DNA of 64,000 bases, taken from an uncultured Bacilli bacterium (lineage in GTDB: Bacteria; Bacillota_I; Bacilli_A; RF39; UBA660). The stretch's first letter is position 1, and every line of letters begins with the position of its first letter. The stretch is taken from positions 180,229 through 244,228 of the forward strand of contig CAKOLL010000001.1 in NCBI GenBank assembly GCA_934096295.1, read 5' to 3'. The position numbers and the translations under genes are program-made. The notes below the pieces were generated by a model, which saw only the letters and a program-made list of their open reading frames with translations, was not told the DNA's origin and searched no databases. Below are positions 24,716-33,791 of this stretch, in pieces.

Positions 24716-26833
24716 TTATTTATTAGTTATGATAAATTTATTATCTTTTATATCTACTATTAGAGTTGTACCAACTTTCATATTTTCATCAATTAATTTA
24801 TGAGCTATTAAGTTTTCAATATTTTTAGTAATATATCTTTTTATTGGACGAGCTCCATATCTTGGGTCGTATGCTTCTTCAATAATTTTTTCTCTAACAG
24901 TATTTGTTATTTCTACACGAATGTAATTTTGTTGTAATCTATCATTTAATTCTTTAATAACTTTATCAACTATTTCCCCAATTACATTTTGTTTTAGAGA
25001 ATTAAAGACAATTATTTCATCAATTCTGTTAATTAATTCTGGTCTAAATGTATTTTTAAGTTCATTCATAACAAGTTCATTAGCATTAGTTTCATTATCT
25101 AAAATATATTCACTACCTAGATTACTTGTCATGATTATAATTGTATTTTTAAAATCAACTAAACGTCCTTGACTATCTGTAAGTCTTCCATCATCTAGTA
25201 TTTGAAGCAAAATATTAAAGACATCTTTGTGAGCTTTTTCTATTTCATCAAATAAGACAATACTATATGGATTTCTTCTTACAGCTTCGGTAAGTTCTCC
25301 GCCTTCGTCATATCCAACGTATCCTGGAGGAGCTCCGATTAAACGTGAAACATTAAAGCTTTCCATATATTCAGAACAGTCAATTCTTATCATGTGTCTT
25401 TCATCATCGAATAATTCATAAGCTAATGATTTAGCAACCTCAGTTTTACCTACCCCGGTTGGGCCCAAGAATATGAATGAACCAATTGGTTTATTTGGAT
25501 CTTTAATTCCACTTCTTGCTCTGATAATTGCTTCACTAACAAGTTTTAATGCATTATCTTGACCTATAACACGAGCTTTTAATCTATCAAATAGATGTAA
25601 TAATTTATCTTTTTCACTACTTACTAGTTTTGATACTGGAATATGTGTCCATCTAGAAATAATGCCAGCGATAGATTCTTCATCTACAACATCTGATAAA
25701 ATATTACTCTTGTTTTCTTCTTGAAGTTTCTTTAATTCTTGTTCCAAAGCTGGAATTTTACCATGACGAAGCATTGCACTTTTTTCAAGGTCATAGTTGT
25801 TTTCAGCTTGTGCTAAAGCAAATTTAGCTTGTTCAAGTTCTTCCTTTTTCTTATTTATTTCGGTTTTTGCTTCTTTTTCGCTTTCCCACTTGCTTCTTAA
25901 ATCAGCTTCTTTTTCTTTCATCGTAACAAGACTTTCATCGATTTCATCAATTCTTTTCTTACTTATTTCATCTTTTTCTTTCTTTAATGCTTGTCTTTCT
26001 ATTTCTAGACTCATTATTTTTCTAGTAAGTTCATCAAGTTCAACAGGCATTGATTCAAGTTGCATTTTGATTGTTGCACAAGCTTCATCCACTAAATCTA
26101 TTGCTTTATCTGGTAAAAATCTATCTGTTATATATCTATCAGATAAAGTTGCTGCAGAAACTAAGGCACTATCTTTTATTGTAACTCCATGAAATATTTC
26201 AAATCTTTCTTTTAGTCCACGAAGAATAGTTATTGTATCTGTAACATTTGGTTCACTTACTAAAACTTTTTGAAATCTTCTTTCTAGAGCTCCATCTTTT
26301 TCAATATACTTACGATATTCATTTAGGGTTGTTGCTCCGATTACATGAATTTCTCCACGTGCTAGCATAGGTTTTAACATATTTGAGACATCCATGGCAC
26401 CATCTGTACCAGAACCTACGATCATGTGTATTTCATCAATAAACATTATGATGTTACCATCTGAATCTTTAATTTCTTTTAAGACTGCTTTTAATCTTTC
26501 TTCAAATTCACCACGATATTTAGCACCCGCTACTAAGGCACCTAAGTCAAGTTCCCAAATTGTCTTATTTTTTAAAGAGCTTGGGATGTCTCCTTTTATA
26601 ATTCTTTGAGCAAGGCCTTCCACTATGGCAGTTTTACCTACCCCAGGTTCCCCGATTAAAACGGGATTATTTTTACTTTTACGAGATAATATTCTAACAA
26701 CATTTCTGATTTCTTCATCTCTACCTATAACTGGGTCAACTTTGTTATCTAAAACATTTTTAGTTATATCTCGCCCATATTTATTTAAAACATCTTTTAA
26801 TTCATCATTGTTTTCAAAGTTCATATTAATCAC
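24716..26833 (-). CDS. clpB: ClpB-type AAA+ disaggregase lacking the N-terminal domain
   Basis: 705 aa starting directly at NBD1 ([39 protein letters not shown]). Coiled-coil middle domain, then NBD2 (GPTGVGKTE, sensor/arginine motifs). About 150 aa shorter than canonical ClpB. Confidence 0.85.
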
Positions 26834-26856
26834 CCTTTCTTAACTTGAACAAATAT

Positions 26857-26885
26857 ATTATAAACCTAAAATTAGCACTTGTCAA
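26857..26885 (-). promoter_or_regulatory. clpB sigma-A promoter (TTGACA-17-TATAAT) overlapping CIRCE
   Basis: Minus-strand TTGACA is the reverse complement of 26880-26885 and lies inside the CIRCE spacer and right arm. TATAAT is the reverse complement of 26857-26862. Confidence 0.6.
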
Positions 26886-26898
26886 GTATAAGTGCTAA
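26872..26898. promoter_or_regulatory. CIRCE element (HrcA operator)
   Basis: TTAGCACTT-GTCAAGTAT-AAGTGCTAA fits the consensus TTAGCACTC-N9-GAGTGCTAA with one mismatch per arm. Located 35 bp upstream of clpB. Confidence 0.75.
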
Positions 26899-26902
26899 TT
26901 AA

Positions 26903-28711
26903 TTATATTTTATATAAAAATATTCTTAAACTATTTAAAATAGATAGTAATGTCACTCCGACATCAGCAAAAACAGCAAGCCAAATCGGAGTTATGCCAA
27001 ATATTGCAAGTATTAACATTATAACTTTAAAGGAAATTGCAAATGTAATATTAGTAATTACTGTTTTTCTAGTTATCTTACTTATTTTCAAGACTTTACT
27101 TATGCATTCTAAATTGTCTTCCATTAAAACTATATCACTGGCTTCAATTGTGGCATCACTACCTAGACCCCCCATTGCAATACCAACATTGGCAAGTCTT
27201 ATTACTGGAACATCGTTGATACCATCACCTACAAAAGCAACATTATTATTCTTCTTATATTCTTCTAGTATTTTTACTTTATCTTCTGGTAGTAAATTTC
27301 CAAAACTTTGATCAATTTTAAGATTTTTAGATATTTCACTCACTACACTTGCATCATCACCAGATAACATGACTATATTTTTTATACCATTTTCTTTTAG
27401 TTCTTGTAGTGATTTTTTAGCATTATCTTTAATTTTGTCACTAATTACAATATAACCTAAATACTCTTTATTTTTAGCAACATGAATTATTGTACCTAAT
27501 TCATTTGTTTCTTCTGGCGTTATTTTATTATCCTCTAATAATAATTTAGAGCCCACTAGAATTTTATCTTTTTTTATTTTACATTCTATTCCTTTGCCAC
27601 TTATTTCTTTATAATTTGTTACTTTAGCAAGGGTTTTATTATAGGAACTTTTTATTGATTTAGCTATCGGGTGATTAGAATGGGTTTCTGATGATGCTGC
27701 TAGATATAATAATTCATCTTTAGAACAATTTATATTTTTTATCTTAACAACTTCAAATACCCCTTCTGTAATCGTACCTGTTTTATCAAATATTATTGTA
27801 TCAATCTTATTTAAGTTATCCATTACATCACTACCCTTTACAAGTATTTTTTCTTTACTGGATTTACCAATTGATGTAAAGTAACTAAGGGGTACCGAAA
27901 TAACTAAAGCACATGGGCATGATATTACAAGCATTTCCAAAGCTCTATATACCCAAGTGGTGAAACTTTTTCCTAAAGCTACAGGTATTACTACGACAAG
28001 AATGGCAAGAATAACCACAATCGGAGTATAAATTTTTGAAAACTTTGTAATAAACTTTTCTGTTTTTGTTTTCTTTTCTTCACTATTTTCAATGATTTCA
28101 ATTATTTTACTTGCTGTACTTGTTTCAAATGTTTTAGTAGCTTTTATTTCTAAAACACTATCTAAATTAATTGTTCCACTTAAGACAGTATCATTTAAAT
28201 TAACTTTTCGTGGTACTGATTCTCCGGTTAAACTTTTTGTATCAATATGACTTGTGCCATTAATTATAATCCCATCTAAAGGTATTTTTTCTCCAGGTGC
28301 AACAATAAAAATGTCACCAACTTTAGATTCTTTTACATCTATATAACCTTTATCTTTTATATTTACTTTATCGCTTCTTAAATCCATTAATTCAACGATA
28401 GCTTTTTTAGAATTATCTACCGCTAAATCTGATAAATATTCTCCGATAGAAAATAATAACATTACTAAAACTGCTTCGGGATACTCTTTAATGTAGAATG
28501 CTCCGAGTGTTGCAATAATCATTAAGAAATTTTCATCAAATATTTTACCATTTTTAATGTTTTTAAGAGCATTAAAATATACTTCTTTAGACACAAAAAC
28601 ATAACTAATCACTAAAAGATAAATGTTTTCATTAAAAATCATTCCTAATACAAGAAAAACAATACTAATTATTATTCTTATTAAATCTTCATTAAATTTT
28701 ATCTTTTTCAT
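26903..28711 (-). CDS. cadA: P1B-type heavy-metal (Cd/Zn-type) translocating ATPase without N-terminal HMA domain
   Basis: 602 aa. CPC transmembrane metal site (VISCPCALVISVP), DKTGTIT phosphorylation motif and VAFVGDGINDVPV hinge. Confidence 0.85.
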   Translation of the reverse strand: MKKIKFNEDLIRIIISIVFLVLGMIFNENIYLLVISYVFVSKEVYFNALKNIKNGKIFDENFLMIIATLGAFYIKEYPEAVLVMLLFSIGEYLSDLAVDNSKKAIVELMDLRSDKVNIKDKGYIDVKESKVGDIFIVAPGEKIPLDGIIINGTSHIDTKSLTGESVPRKVNLNDTVLSGTINLDSVLEIKATKTFETSTASKIIEIIENSEEKKTKTEKFITKFSKIYTPIVVILAILVVVIPVALGKSFTTWVYRALEMLVISCPCALVISVPLSYFTSIGKSSKEKILVKGSDVMDNLNKIDTIIFDKTGTITEGVFEVVKIKNINCSKDELLYLAASSETHSNHPIAKSIKSSYNKTLAKVTNYKEISGKGIECKIKKDKILVGSKLLLEDNKITPEETNELGTIIHVAKNKEYLGYIVISDKIKDNAKKSLQELKENGIKNIVMLSGDDASVVSEISKNLKIDQSFGNLLPEDKVKILEEYKKNNNVAFVGDGINDVPVIRLANVGIAMGGLGSDATIEASDIVLMEDNLECISKVLKISKITRKTVITNITFAISFKVIMLILAIFGITPIWLAVFADVGVTLLSILNSLRIFLYKI

Positions 28712-29004
28712 AACTTTATTCCTTCTTTAATATGTTCAAGCCCATATTCAATTATCACTTTAATATGATTATCTGCAATACTATAATAAATTATTTGTCC
28801 TTCTTTTCTTGTTTTAACTAAGTTTGTACTTCTTAAATAACTTAGTTGATGTGACACTGCTGAATTACTCACATTTATTTTATTTGCTATAACACCAACG
28901 GATGTTTCTTCATTTAATAATACTTCAAGTATTCTAAGTCTTGTGGTATCACTAAATACTTTAAAAAATTCACTTAGTTCATTTATTATTTCTACTTTTT
29001 CCAT
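28708..29004 (-). CDS. cadC: ArsR/SmtB family metalloregulator (CadC-like)
   Basis: 98 aa with winged-HTH TTRLRILEVLLNEETSVGVIANKINVSNSAVSHQLSYLR. Translationally coupled to the ATPase. Confidence 0.8.
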   Translation of the reverse strand: MEKVEIINELSEFFKVFSDTTRLRILEVLLNEETSVGVIANKINVSNSAVSHQLSYLRSTNLVKTRKEGQIIYYSIADNHIKVIIEYGLEHIKEGIKL

Positions 29005-29014
29005 TTTATCTCCT

Positions 29015-29040
29015 TATTTGAATATCTGTTCATATATTCA
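29015..29040. promoter_or_regulatory. Candidate CadC/ArsR operator (imperfect inverted repeat)
   Basis: TGAATAT-ctgttcat-ATATTCA immediately upstream of the cadC RBS. Confidence 0.4.
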
Positions 29041-29109
29041 TTATACTATTATTAAATTATGAATGCAATTAAAAAAAATCTCATGTCAATGAAATCTTTA
29101 CTTTTTTAA

Positions 29110-29370
29110 TTAACCTGGATATGATAAGTGATTTTTATCAAACCACAATAAATTGAGATTATCACTTTCTCTCCACCCAATTATCCTAAATTTTTGATTA
29201 GCTCTAAATGATACTAAAGTTGCATCTTTAGGAAATATATCTGGAATCGAAACATTAAAGTATCTAGGAGTTTCATAGTTCAATCCTTGATCTATTTTAA
29301 TATCCTTCCATGACATTATTTCTATTTTTTTACAAAAGTTTATAAATGCCTTTAATTCTTTTGGCCCCAA
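29110..29370 (-). CDS. Small hypothetical ORF (86 aa, TTG start, no RBS). Possible toxin partner of the Panacea protein, or a gene remnant.
   Basis: ORF opens with TTG right after an in-frame TGA. C-terminal ...RIIGWRESDNLNLLWFDKNH is loosely RelE/HigB-like. The call is weak. Confidence 0.25.
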   Translation of the reverse strand: MGPKELKAFINFCKKIEIMSWKDIKIDQGLNYETPRYFNVSIPDIFPKDATLVSFRANQKFRIIGWRESDNLNLLWFDKNHLSYPG

Positions 29371-29477
29371 TTTTTCAAGGGGAAATTTATCATGACAATA
29401 TGCAAATTTGATTTTGCATATTTCATCATCTCTAGTTTTAGATAAATTTAAATTTTTAGTTTTTGAATTTACTTTTT

Positions 29478-29942
29478 TTAATTTTCATAATCAATTTTTG
29501 TCTTAAAGAATAATCTCATACTTTCTTTGGAAATAATATTATTGCATGGTTCTCCGTCTTTATGATTACCTCTGGCATCTATCCACGGTTTTTCCATATG
29601 CGTCAAATATTCTAAATATTTTCCGTCATAAATGCCATATGTATTCCAAACGTCATACAAAAAATTGACTAGTTTTTTATCTAAAACTGGTACTTTTCCT
29701 TTAGGCCTATCTATTGCTTGAAAGCCATATTCCTTATATTCAAAATAAATACCTACGTTTGCTGGTCCATGTGCCCATGCTTCAAAATCTTCACTAAAAA
29801 GTTCTTTATCATACATCGCTAAATGATACCCTTGTGCATAATATAATATCTTTTGCAATTTTAATGGTGTAATTGTACTTCCTGCATCTCTATCTACAAT
29901 TTGCAAGAAAAAGTTTGCTATGTCAAATATAGTTAACTTCAT
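29478..29942 (-). CDS. Panacea domain (DUF4065) antitoxin-like, SocA-like phage-associated protein
   Basis: 154 aa. MKLTIFDIANFFL...ITPLKLQKILYYAQGYHLAMYDKELFSEDFEAWAHGP matches the Panacea/DUF4065 signature. Confidence 0.75.
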   Translation of the reverse strand: MKLTIFDIANFFLQIVDRDAGSTITPLKLQKILYYAQGYHLAMYDKELFSEDFEAWAHGPANVGIYFEYKEYGFQAIDRPKGKVPVLDKKLVNFLYDVWNTYGIYDGKYLEYLTHMEKPWIDARGNHKDGEPCNNIISKESMRLFFKTKIDYEN

Positions 29943-30065
29943 AATTCCTCCTTATATTTGAGAGAGTATTTTAATTAAATTCCACCCATTATGTAAATCA
30001 CTAAAGACATTTTATCTCTCAGTATTAATTCTACTACATATTTTATGATTGTCAAGCATTGTTGC

Positions 30066-30102
30066 TAAAAAAGCAAATGAAATTTCAGACATGAAATTTC
30101 AT
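30066..30102 (-). terminator. Terminator overlapping the stop codon of the DUF4097 gene
   Basis: ATGAAATTTC-agacat-GAAATTTCAT hairpin with a downstream T6 on the minus strand. Confidence 0.55.
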
Positions 30103-30881
30103 TTATTTGTATTAATATTTATGCTTCCTACGCCACCGTCTATATCAATTATATTTTGTCCTTCCCCTAATTCGATGTCATTTTTGTAGCTAATACCATT
30201 AATGGAGATACTGCCTAGACCTTTGGATGCTTCAAATTTATAATCATCATTTTGCAAATCTAATGTTACCTCTCCGACCCCTTGATCTATTTTATTTTTA
30301 CCTAAAAGCATTCCATTAAAATAGAATTTACCAGTTCCTAAATCTAGAGATAAATCTTGTAATTTGGAATTTGTAATATTTAGTTCTCCGGCTCCTCCAT
30401 TAACTTTTGTTTTATTGGATAGCAAATTTGTAATATCAACTTTACCAGCACCTTGATCTAAAGAAAATTTATCAGTTGTTATATCAGAAATTTCAAGTTT
30501 GCCAGCACCAATATTAATATTTAAATCATCTAATGTATCTGGTATAGTAATTATGGTATGAGAACTTTTTTTATTTCCGAATATTGTTATCTTTTTTTCT
30601 TTTATTAATAAAGTATTTCCATCTTCTTTTATTTTAAATTCTTTACTAACATTATCAGCATTAATACTTAATATATCTCCTTTTTTAATTATCATATTAG
30701 TTGAACCAACATCTATATTTATATTTTTTATATTACTTGAGTAGGTTTTGCTAACATTAACATCATTATTAAAATTAATTGTTGATGTCGCTAAAAATAC
30801 GATTCCATTAATAATACTTAGTATTATTAAAACTGCAAGACAGATAGCAAATCCTTTTATTACTTTTTGCGTGGTATTCAT
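30099..30881 (-). CDS. DUF4097 'toastrack' beta-repeat protein (YvlB-like putative adhesin / stress-response partner)
   Basis: 260 aa with N-terminal TM. Repeated G-A-G-K/E-[LV]-[DN]-I beta-strand units (GAGKLEISD, GAGKVDITN, GAGELNITN, GVGEVTLD, GVGSININ). Confidence 0.6.
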   Translation of the reverse strand: MNTTQKVIKGFAICLAVLIILSIINGIVFLATSTINFNNDVNVSKTYSSNIKNINIDVGSTNMIIKKGDILSINADNVSKEFKIKEDGNTLLIKEKKITIFGNKKSSHTIITIPDTLDDLNINIGAGKLEISDITTDKFSLDQGAGKVDITNLLSNKTKVNGGAGELNITNSKLQDLSLDLGTGKFYFNGMLLGKNKIDQGVGEVTLDLQNDDYKFEASKGLGSISINGISYKNDIELGEGQNIIDIDGGVGSININTNK

Positions 30882-31555
30882 TTAATTTCAATTCCTCCGA
30901 ATACGGCATATCCTTCGATATAAATTGTCTTTTTAGCATCTTCATTATTTTTTCTTTCGTTAGAAATTCCACCGAATATTGGAGTACCTTTTACTTTAAC
31001 TATGCAATCTTTTGGAACTAATATTTCTATACCACCAAATATCGCCCATGCTCCGATGACTGTTTCTTTTTCTAATTTTGCTTCTCTTAAGTCTAGTTTT
31101 ACAGCCCCAAAAATAGCATTTAAATTTGCTTTTTCAAATTTTTCTCCAGATTTAGTTACATTTTGTTCTCCGAATGCTGCAAAAATATTTTCAGTGTCTT
31201 CACTATCTAAACATTTTGTTTTTTCTTTAACATTAAAATCTACCTTATTACCAAATATTAAAGATAACCCAATTAATACGACGATTGCTGGTAATAAAAT
31301 TTCCCAAAGAATTTCAAATTCAAATAACCCTTGAGCTGCTAAAAGGAGTAAAACCCCAATAATTAAAAATATTAAAGAAGATACTTTATTGCTACCTTTT
31401 TCAAAAAATGATATAGCACTTGGCACAATAATAAATAGTGTCCACCATCCATCAAAAAAAATATTTATGTCTGCTACTCCAGTTCTATTAAGTCCCCAGA
31501 TAACACCAACAAATATTAATACTATGCCCCATAATACTCTGCTTAAATTTTTCAT
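30878..31555 (-). CDS. LiaF-like membrane protein (DUF2154, cell-wall-stress toastrack domain)
   Basis: 225 aa. Multi-TM N-terminus plus C-terminal repeated FGG/FGA strands (AAFGEQN, AIFGAVKLD, AIFGGIEILV, TPIFGGIS, AVFGGIEIK). Overlaps the DUF4097 gene by 4 nt. Confidence 0.6.
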   Translation of the reverse strand: MKNLSRVLWGIVLIFVGVIWGLNRTGVADINIFFDGWWTLFIIVPSAISFFEKGSNKVSSLIFLIIGVLLLLAAQGLFEFEILWEILLPAIVVLIGLSLIFGNKVDFNVKEKTKCLDSEDTENIFAAFGEQNVTKSGEKFEKANLNAIFGAVKLDLREAKLEKETVIGAWAIFGGIEILVPKDCIVKVKGTPIFGGISNERKNNEDAKKTIYIEGYAVFGGIEIK

Positions 31556-31607
31556 ATAATCAATCCTTTCTTTTCTTAAGTATAATACAATTTTTTTATA
31601 ATATCAA

Positions 31608-33791
31608 TTAAATATTTATAGGATTAAAATCTATTTCTATTCTAACTTCTTTATTCATAATAAATAAATTATCTAATTCTTTTAAAACTGTTTTTAAATT
31701 ATCACACTTTTTATATTTTATTATAATTTGCATTCGATATTCATTATTAAATTTAAATACTTGAGCTGTTGTTGGACCTAAAACGATAGCTTCTTCTAGG
31801 CTTTTATCTAAAAATGTTTTTACTTTCTTACTAGCTTCAATTGTTTTATTATAATCTTTACCTATTACTTTTAAACTAACCAAATAGTAATAAGGTGGAT
31901 ATTTCAATTTTTTTCTAAAATTCATTTCATATAAATAAAATTTATCATAACTATTTTCTTTAATGCAATTTATTACATAATTATCAGGATTAAATGTTTG
32001 AATGATTACTTCTCCGGGATATGTACTTCTTCCACTTCGCCCAGCAACTTGATGAAGTAAGGCAAATGTATTTTCACTAGCTTTAAAATTAGGAATATTT
32101 AAAGTGGTATCAGCATTTATTACTCCGACTAAAGTAACTTTTGGAAAGTCTAGTCCTTTACTAATCATTTGAGTTCCAAGTAATATATTATATTTTTCAT
32201 TTTTAAAATCATCGATTATTTTTTCATGTGCACCTTTTCTTCTCGTAGTATCTTGATCCATTCTAACTATTTTAGCTTCTGGTAATAATTCTTTTAACTT
32301 TTCTTCTAATTTTTCAGTTCCGAGGCCATAATAATTCAAAGATTTTTCTTTACACTCTGGACATAATTCTTCACATCTTTGTTGAAAACCACAATAATGA
32401 CATATCAAATTATTTGTTGATTTATGATAAGTTAAGGTTATGTCACAACTTGGACATTTATATGTAAATCCACAATTACTACATGTTATAAAAGTTGAAA
32501 AGCCTCGACGATTTAAAAGTAAAATAACTTGTTCATTTTTAGCAATTTTCTCTTTTATTTTACTAATTAAAAGATCACTAAATATCATGTTTCTTTTTTT
32601 CATTTCTGGTTCCATATCCACCACAGTTATTGTTGGAAGAATAGCTGTTCCTACTCTATTTTTTAAAGTTAGTAATGTAAAGACTCCTTTATCAGCTCTC
32701 GCTTTACTTTCTAAAGATGGTGTTGCACTAGCTAAAACAACGGGAATATTATTATACTTTCCCCGATGCATTGCGATATCTTTAGCATTATATCTAGGAT
32801 TATTATCTTGCTTGTAACTACTGGAATCTTCTTCATCAATTATAATTATACCTAGATTTTTAACCGGAGCAAAAATTGCACTACGAGTACCTACCACAAC
32901 ATGAACCTCACCGCGATAAATTTTTAAATATTCATCATACTTTTCTCCTTCAGATAATGAACTATGTAAAATTGCTACATCACTACCAAAAGTCTCATAA
33001 AATCTCTTAGCAATTTGATGCGTTAAGCTTATTTCGGGAACCAATACTATGCCAGTTTTTCCTTCTTTTATGATACTTTCTATTAATTTTATATATACCT
33101 CAGTTTTTCCTGATCCAGTTATTCCATATAATAAGAATGGTTCAAAGTGATTAAATGATGATTTTACTTTTTCATATACTATCTCTTGATCACTAGTTAA
33201 CGTTTTATTTATATTACTTGTATTTTTATTAATACGATATTTTTGAACCTTTTTTATATCTATTAATTCAAGCTCTATTAAAGTTTTAATGATACTTGAA
33301 CTATAATTTTTCTTTAGTAATTCATTATTATCTAAAACTTGTTTTAAAACTTTTACTTGGGCTTTTCTTTTATTTTCATAGATATTAATATAATCTATTA
33401 CTTTTTTTCTATCTTTTATAATTATATATTCATCATATAAATCATAATTTGATGTATTCTTTTTTACTTTTAGACTTGATGGAAGCATTGTTTGATATGC
33501 AGTTATCATCGTACATAAAGTAGATTCTGATAAATATTTTCCAAGTTCCATTAATTCTTTATTTAAAACTAACTTTTCATCTACGATACTTGAAATATAC
33601 TTAAGTTCGTAAGATGTATCATCACATATATCTATTATTTCCATAATAAAACCTACCACTTGTTGAAATCCAAAAGGTACTAAAACTTTCATTCCGACTT
33701 GAATTTTATCTTGTAAATATTCCGGTATCATATATATAAATTCTTTATCTAATTTTTTTATACTATATTCAATTATTACTTTTGCGTACAT
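31608..33791 (-). CDS. priA: Primosomal protein N' (replication restart helicase PriA)
   Basis: 727 aa. Walker A GITGSGKTEVY, DExx, Cys-rich zinc-binding insert (CSNCGFTYKCPSCD...CHYCGF...CPECK), C-terminal domain. Confidence 0.9.
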   Translation of the reverse strand: MYAKVIIEYSIKKLDKEFIYMIPEYLQDKIQVGMKVLVPFGFQQVVGFIMEIIDICDDTSYELKYISSIVDEKLVLNKELMELGKYLSESTLCTMITAYQTMLPSSLKVKKNTSNYDLYDEYIIIKDRKKVIDYINIYENKRKAQVKVLKQVLDNNELLKKNYSSSIIKTLIELELIDIKKVQKYRINKNTSNINKTLTSDQEIVYEKVKSSFNHFEPFLLYGITGSGKTEVYIKLIESIIKEGKTGIVLVPEISLTHQIAKRFYETFGSDVAILHSSLSEGEKYDEYLKIYRGEVHVVVGTRSAIFAPVKNLGIIIIDEEDSSSYKQDNNPRYNAKDIAMHRGKYNNIPVVLASATPSLESKARADKGVFTLLTLKNRVGTAILPTITVVDMEPEMKKRNMIFSDLLISKIKEKIAKNEQVILLLNRRGFSTFITCSNCGFTYKCPSCDITLTYHKSTNNLICHYCGFQQRCEELCPECKEKSLNYYGLGTEKLEEKLKELLPEAKIVRMDQDTTRRKGAHEKIIDDFKNEKYNILLGTQMISKGLDFPKVTLVGVINADTTLNIPNFKASENTFALLHQVAGRSGRSTYPGEVIIQTFNPDNYVINCIKENSYDKFYLYEMNFRKKLKYPPYYYLVSLKVIGKDYNKTIEASKKVKTFLDKSLEEAIVLGPTTAQVFKFNNEYRMQIIIKYKKCDNLKTVLKELDNLFIMNKEVRIEIDFNPINI

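Follow-up and report, generated by a model that had tools for sequence, protein, structure and literature searches.

A protein with a Panacea domain (DUF4065), of the kind found in antitoxins, is encoded on the minus strand of the DNA studied here, a 64-kb stretch of a contig from an uncultured Bacilli bacterium (hereafter the window), and its presence raises the question of whether it has a toxin partner. The preliminary description of this locus pointed to a single candidate, an 86-aa ORF with a TTG start 107 nt downstream, and left two alternatives: either this ORF was a new Panacea-associated toxin, or the antitoxin was orphaned. We consider it likely that the locus is a chromosomal panAT operon of the T1 type, in which the toxin gene (panT) is frameshifted and the antitoxin gene (panA) is intact. 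It is a panAT of a catalogued type, that is, a Panacea antitoxin with a RelE-shaped toxin, and not a new system.

The 154-aa ORF with the N-terminus cited earlier exists at 29478..29942 on the minus strand, and the proposed profile check against PF13274 (SocA_Panacea) gave a clear match, with an E of 3.6e-16 and 60.5 bits compared with a gathering score of 25.7 (Pfam scan). The Panacea domain spans residues 29-120 of the protein, and an extra domain is absent; PanA is a stand-alone Panacea protein, as the preliminary description had it. PanA also matches phrog_1281 (E 1.5e-41, PHROG), and a public collection lists an identical protein in 50 blocks, while a comparison of PanA with PDB chains by sequence yielded nothing significant. 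Upstream of the gene, we found a Shine-Dalgarno sequence (AAGGAGG, 29947..29953, minus) 4 nt 5' of the ATG and, farther 5', a promoter-like site (TTGACA-16 nt-TAGAAT, 30028..30055, minus). The latter was recognized by a consensus scan with 11 of 12 matches and is a pattern only, from a scanned region that holds 14 such sites against 8.8 expected from shuffles.

The same Pfam domain occurs in the antitoxin of SocAB, the type VI toxin-antitoxin (TA) system of Caulobacter. We rejected SocAB as an identity for this locus: the NCBIfam SocA model reaches 62.9 bits against a cut-off of 190 and aligns with the N-terminal 80 residues of PanA only, and SocB is unrelated to the window toxin. SocA acts as a ClpXP adaptor, a role that is not implied for PanA.

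Downstream of panA, the 86-aa ORF with the cited C-terminus is present at 29110..29370 (minus), 107 nt from panA, and its TTG lacks a Shine-Dalgarno sequence, as claimed. This ORF does not stand as a gene. It corresponds to codons 40-125, the 3' two-thirds, of a 125-codon gene, panT (29110..29488, minus), and its frame is open upstream to the panA stop. Taken together with the codons 5' of the TTG, and only then, the frame matched three models, each from at least 14 residues upstream of that codon: NCBIfam NF046006, the MAG6450 family (44.1 bits, E 2.4e-11, cut-off 40, profile positions 3-99 of 103); the PADLOC NsnC model, over its C-terminal 100 residues (positions 181-278 of 284, E 5e-13); and phrog_8366 (E 1.6e-13). 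The relatives of panT score 46.6-64.4 bits with NF046006. The Pfam profile check, by comparison, assigned no family to either the 86-aa or the extended ORF, even at E up to 10. Among 5.8 billion proteins, we recovered 18 relatives, the close ones of which are 125 aa long, open with MKIKKVNS and align over 99-100% of the extended frame; in homologues of 125 aa with identities of 97% and 88%, the start is the ATG that overlaps panA. In the window, this ATG occupies 29488..29486, 8 nt before the panA stop, such that the last 11 nt of panA are shared with panT (ATGAAAATTAA), and it has no Shine-Dalgarno sequence of its own.

We aligned the window panT as DNA with six intact loci and found one difference that matters, the length of an adenine run directly after codon 5. 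This run is A7 in the window (29473..29479, minus), with a 1-nt insertion, A6 in eight related loci (L007-L010 and L038-L041) and A5-T (AAAAAT) in alleles of the type found in 'Firmicutes bacterium CAG:460'. From its start codon, the window gene now encodes 10 codons, MKIKKSKFKN, followed by a stop (29456..29488, minus); removal of one A from the run restores the 125-codon panT. A SNP at 29461 (minus; AAT to AAA, N9K in the repaired frame), 12 nt downstream of the run, is linked to the A7 allele: it is found in the window and in one other locus (L011) only and is absent from A6 alleles. Apart from the indel, N9K and one other base, the window panT is the same as the closest intact allele, P0027 (loci L038-L041), and the window frame still encodes every nearly invariant residue of the family. 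Because the remainder of the gene is intact and P0027 is nearly identical, the loss of panT is taken to be recent. A7/T7 runs are commonplace in this DNA (103 in 64 kb, at 26% GC); a slip from A6 to A7 is an expected type of mutation. The first two A's of the run double as the last two bases of the panA stop codon (TAA), and panA is therefore unaffected. To judge from the sequence, panT is thus a recently inactivated toxin gene whose antitoxin gene is intact.

With panT frameshifted, the orphaned antitoxin comes closest, for this strain, of the two alternatives offered earlier: panA would now be functionally orphaned in the A7 strain, the gene itself untouched. The TTG start, the missing ribosome-binding site, the 107-bp gap and the boundaries of the 86-aa ORF are all by-products of the frameshift. 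The proposal that the downstream ORF is the partner of the Panacea protein holds in part: the pair is conserved in all related loci examined (see below), but the toxin is neither 86 aa long nor TTG-started. Within the 64-kb window, we found no second copy of panA or panT. The 3' side of panT has a weak, AT-rich hairpin followed by a U-run (29066..29112, minus; MFE -9.1 kcal/mol, z -1.77), a possible terminator. This hairpin is not significant, as 13 of 200 shuffles fold equally well, and a terminator scan for an intrinsic terminator after panT was negative.

To define the family, a profile of 17 relatives was compared with 1.84 billion representative proteins, which gave 523 members at E <= 0.001. 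Most are 120-150 aa long; one of the members listed (P0155), at 287 aa, is NsnC-like and also passes NF046006. Conserved residues comprise F25, W57, P79, R98, G101, R103, W112, D114 and H117 (numbering of the 122-aa frame), among which R98, R103, D114 and H117 are candidate catalytic residues. The AlphaFold2 model of the toxin frame (pLDDT 86.1, pTM 0.77) consists of a short strand, two helices and a three-stranded sheet, which is a RelE-type alpha/beta fold. PanT thereby resembles, in its predicted structure, the RelE, YafQ, HigB and YoeB toxins, with which it further shares conserved basic and His residues near the C-terminus and the position of a small toxin encoded after its antitoxin. It differs from them in that structural alignments show an identity of only 7-19%, in the presence of about 35 additional N-terminal residues, and in its partner, which is a Panacea protein rather than RelB, DinJ, HigA or YefM. 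The Pfam models for RelE, YafQ, HigB, YoeB and ParE_toxin did not match PanT at E up to 10, and the PanT profile found nothing significant among PDB chains (the best, a plant reductase at E 0.16, was taken as chance). Because neither the Pfam RelE-type models nor the PDB gave a match by sequence, the relationship to RelE lies at the level of the fold only. By analogy, PanT is most likely a RelE/YafQ-type (BECR) endoribonuclease that blocks translation.

The preliminary description had allowed for a new Panacea-associated toxin; the protein belongs instead to NF046006 and to cluster T1 of Kurata et al. 2022, who predicted 1,268 PanAT pairs with 88 toxin clusters (PMC8832971). Its placement in T1 is based on two points. 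One is an alignment by hhalign of the family profile with a T1 protein of Salmonella phage Emek (YP_006560566.1, pT1/T1; 99.0% probability, E 5.3e-18, 110 columns), this being the one T1 member with which the comparison was made. The other is the Mycoplasma-derived name of NF046006, which presumably refers to the T1 pair of Mycoplasma agalactiae. In the part of the Kurata et al. material available to us, T1 is the cluster with the most rows in Dataset S1, and includes Mycoplasma agalactiae, Spiroplasma, Helicobacter, clostridia, E. coli prophages and Salmonella phage Emek (PMC8832971). According to the same part of that source, a T1 member from Clostridium cadaveris was scored 'Toxic' only, meaning that it was toxic in E. 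coli and not rescued by PanA, and two phage-type members were scored 'not Toxic'; the rows of Dataset S1 available for T1 contain no validated TA pair. HHpred annotations of the RelE type appear there for clusters T14, T28, T59 and T76, and on none of the T1 rows (PMC8832971). Like the window locus, T1 has a stand-alone Panacea gene upstream and the toxin gene downstream, with a short overlap. The window copy is distinguished from other T1 pairs by its frameshifted toxin gene and by its host, an uncultured human-gut Bacilli bacterium related to 'Firmicutes bacterium CAG:460'.

In the hhalign alignment, the Emek T1 protein (vB_SemP_Emek, L033:1580-2062), which is scored 'not Toxic' in the available part of Dataset S1, lacks two residues that the family conserves, the Arg in RIIG and the C-terminal His: at those sites it reads LKAMVGYR and WLDREFNLYK. 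The missing Arg and His might explain why this protein is not toxic.

The NsnC match connects PanT with a second known system. The C-terminal part of NsnC (NsnC-C), from the Menshen system, is a YafQ-like BECR RNase domain for which an H-R-H triad has been proposed (Li et al. 2025, PMC12065111). By sequence, this effector domain, PB-BECR1, is the same domain as PanT. In panAT, the domain makes up a protein by itself and has Panacea as its partner, whereas NsnC has an N-terminal inPIN domain. We considered whether the locus could be a Menshen system and rejected this identification: the 125-aa PanT contains no inPIN domain, and neither NsnA (ParB-DUF262) nor NsnB (ABC ATPase/DUF3696) is encoded among the neighbours.

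The association between the two genes is constant across relatives. In a survey of GTDB species-representative genomes, which used a narrow alignment and covers close relatives and one Flavobacterium locus only, a Panacea-like ORF lies directly upstream of panT in 17 of 17 loci; 1 of these is from Flavobacterium, and the other 16 are from MAGs of uncultured gut Bacilli or other Firmicutes, one of them bearing the label Clostridium sp. PF13274 was confirmed in all 10 of the upstream ORFs that were scanned (8 from these loci and 2 from phages), and the pair was also found in Pseudomonas and Salmonella phages. We found panA and panT to be adjacent and co-oriented in the CAG:460-type contigs, in the contigs that carry the PanA of the window and in all 17 GTDB loci, and across loci they overlap mostly by 11 nt. 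Comparisons between species gave dN/dS values of 0.13-0.28 (panT) and 0.05-0.14 (panA), which indicate that the intact genes are under purifying selection.

The genes that surround the pair are less constant. In the window, the neighbours of panAT are priA, a liaF-like gene, a DUF4097 gene, arsR/cadA (cadA encoding a P-type ATPase) and clpB. The preliminary description had placed the Panacea gene next to cadCA, an adjacency that proved incidental, as other genes intervene or take its place in sister lineages: CAG:460-type contigs carry an HTH gene and a gene for a protein of 487-518 aa between panT and arsR-cadA, and one such contig has comEA/comEC in place of arsR-cadA. We rejected a functional link between panAT and cadCA, as the adjacency is not conserved across relatives. 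Upstream of panA (30099..31555), a LiaF-like membrane protein (PF22570 and PF09922) and a DUF4097 'toastrack' protein are encoded with overlapping stop and start codons, and this pair is syntenic with priA in all relatives that we examined. On the other side, the arsR-cadA region (26903..29004) has diverged by 2.0% (arsR) and 6.9% (cadA) from a CAG:460-type locus (L001), compared with 11-21% for priA, the liaF-like gene, DUF4097 and panAT; in another (L002), the arsR-cadA cassette is missing from that position. This suggests that the metal-resistance cassette is exchanged horizontally and that the position immediately 3' of panT is prone to variation. Among strains of this species (loci L010 and L038-L041; 29110..30098), panA has diverged by 0-0.8% and panT by 0.8-1.3%, and the flanks (26200..32900) by 2.6-4.7% (DUF4097), 2-7.7% (arsR) and 3-6.7% (cadA). 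Over panA and panT combined, the window departs from L010 by 4 non-synonymous and 0 synonymous changes. A recombination event or sweep that recently involved the module may account for the low divergence of panAT relative to its flanks.

For the operon in its intact form, we propose the following mechanism. A sigma-70-like promoter and the strong Shine-Dalgarno sequence would drive panA. As panT has no Shine-Dalgarno sequence of its own and starts 8 nt before the panA stop, its translation would be coupled to that of panA, an arrangement that would hold the toxin below the antitoxin. The 125-aa product would be the putative BECR endoribonuclease described above, likely blocking translation. 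In other pairs, the stand-alone Panacea domain neutralises the toxin directly (Ernits et al. 2023, PMC10440598), and PanA most likely acts on PanT in the same way, by direct binding. In the window, the extra A would shift the panT frame after codon 5, leaving the 10-residue peptide, and the toxin would not be made, although the A7 run may allow the frame to be restored at a low level.

This account depends on the A7 allele being both real and null. Homopolymer miscounts are a frequent type of error, and apart from the indel panT is intact, as might be seen if the extra A were a product of sequencing or assembly and the strain truly had an intact panAT. We found, however, the same A7 in a separate assembly: the 43-kb contig of L011 (ENA ERZ27286968) matches the window without a difference over 4.7 kb (100% identity), A7 included. 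In addition, the linked N9K SNP marks the A7 allele and is seen in no A6 allele. The 23 contigs that we read with an identical PanA fall into a group of 12 without a toxin gene call (L011 and 11 similar contigs, in which the gene after panT is displaced by one base) and a group of 11 with the intact allele, where the 125-aa gene is called (L010 and 10 similar contigs); with contigs grouped by their similarity to L011, we estimate the A7-type share at about half. Independent disruptions in sister lineages (described below) likewise show that toxin loss is a real trend. A scan of JGI metagenomes for the A6/A7 junction pattern gave 0 matches. A one-off sequencing error is an unlikely source of the extra A, and we regard it as very unlikely that this strain in truth carries an intact panAT. 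If the A7 allele is real, it could still be a hypomorph or a switch, with the frame restored by slippage or by a +1 slip of tRNA-Lys, or with the toxin toggled by phase variation between A6 and A7. A +1 shift on AAA AAA A|GTA permits perfect re-pairing, the length of the tract varies between alleles (A5, A6 and A7), and A6 and A7 are both common among contigs with the same PanA. Yet A7 occurs on a single haplotype, marked by its private SNP, and not across several, runs of this length are ordinary in such AT-rich DNA (see above), and the run is followed not by a stimulatory slow codon but by AGT as the next 0-frame codon. At 7 nt, the tract is also on the short side for a contingency locus or for slippage to be efficient. 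Furthermore, when the first 33 nt of panT are compared across 20 loci, their longest A-run ranges from 3 to 7 and shifts in position, and a programmed frameshift or phase-variable tract was rejected on these grounds. Overall, we consider a hypomorphic or switching role for A7 distinctly improbable. It is more doubtful still that the 86-aa ORF is a genuine small toxin translated independently from the TTG at 29370. The ORF does keep the two helices and three C-terminal strands of the RelE-like core, along with the conserved R/G/R/W/D/H residues, but it misses the first beta-strand (E22-24 in the model), the conserved F25 and C28 of the Cys-His motif. Every homologue is about 125 aa long, not 86 aa; no Shine-Dalgarno sequence precedes the TTG; in five of five A6 or A5-T alleles (L007-L009, L001 and L002) the leucine codon at this site is TTA, which is no start; and no gene is called at the site in L011. 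We judge such an independent toxin to be extremely unlikely.

A further alternative concerns the function of the pair rather than its structure. The Menshen defence system uses the same effector domain (PMC12065111), the pair occurs in the Pseudomonas and Salmonella phages noted above, both PanA and PanT match PHROG families, and Ernits et al. have proposed a sensory role for Panacea (PMC10440598). These observations would suit a pair that serves primarily in abortive infection or other phage defence, or in phage counter-defence, and not as an addiction-type TA, with Panacea as the sensor and the RelE-like protein as the effector. The window, however, bears no signs of a prophage or a defence island, the neighbours being those listed above, and a defence role is compatible with, not exclusive of, a T1-type panAT operon with a frameshifted toxin gene. 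As a primary function, defence or counter-defence seems to us quite unlikely.

The frameshifted T1-type operon of the window has counterparts in its relatives, in which the module carries several independent lesions. Four assemblies (L012-L015) have a nonsense mutation at panT codon 22 (GAA to TAA, E22 stop) and an intact panA, and panT is truncated beside an intact panA in two more loci (L030 and L031). In a Hadza MAG with the synteny of the window (L029), panA is split into pieces of 77 aa and 60 aa, and about 185 bp are missing from within panT. In three others (L035-L037), panA is almost wholly deleted (window positions 29889..29491 are missing), and a 78-aa panT remnant is left. This remnant is in frame and lies directly after the DUF4097 gene (L035:55-291, L036:1307-1543 and L037:601-837); the remnants were flagged automatically as not translating to the query. 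Knock-outs of the toxin only thus include at least two independent early-truncating mutations, the A7 frameshift and the E22 stop. Two otherwise intact alleles, P0001 and P0021 (L007-L009), carry R in place of the nearly invariant Gly in the RIIG motif and a G-to-C change at the C-terminal end, and P0001 additionally has H to Q in the C-H motif. These may be attenuated toxins that segregate in the same population.

Chromosomal TA modules are usually expected to decay toxin-first, and the pattern of lesions in the relatives, taken as a description and not as a test, fits such an order. One could go further and suppose that the lineage holds a decay series in which the toxin was lost first and the intact orphan PanA was retained as useful, either neutralising T1-type toxins that arrive with phages or mobile elements or serving as a sensor. 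We offer this extension tentatively and think it fairly unlikely.

Our results have consequences for both the locus and the toxin family. In annotation, the region should appear as panA followed by a panT pseudogene with a frameshift, in place of a Panacea gene and an 86-aa hypothetical protein. The gut metagenomes hold independently inactivated alleles beside intact ones and thus offer a comparison for the loss of toxin before antitoxin and for the persistence of orphan Panacea genes. In addition, T1 becomes assignable to a RelE/YafQ-like fold and shares its domain with the Menshen effector, which provides a concrete mechanism to test. If this assignment is true, T1, the largest 'unknown' PanT cluster in the available part of the Kurata et al. 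dataset, would be unified with the RelE-fold effector domain of Menshen, PB-BECR1.
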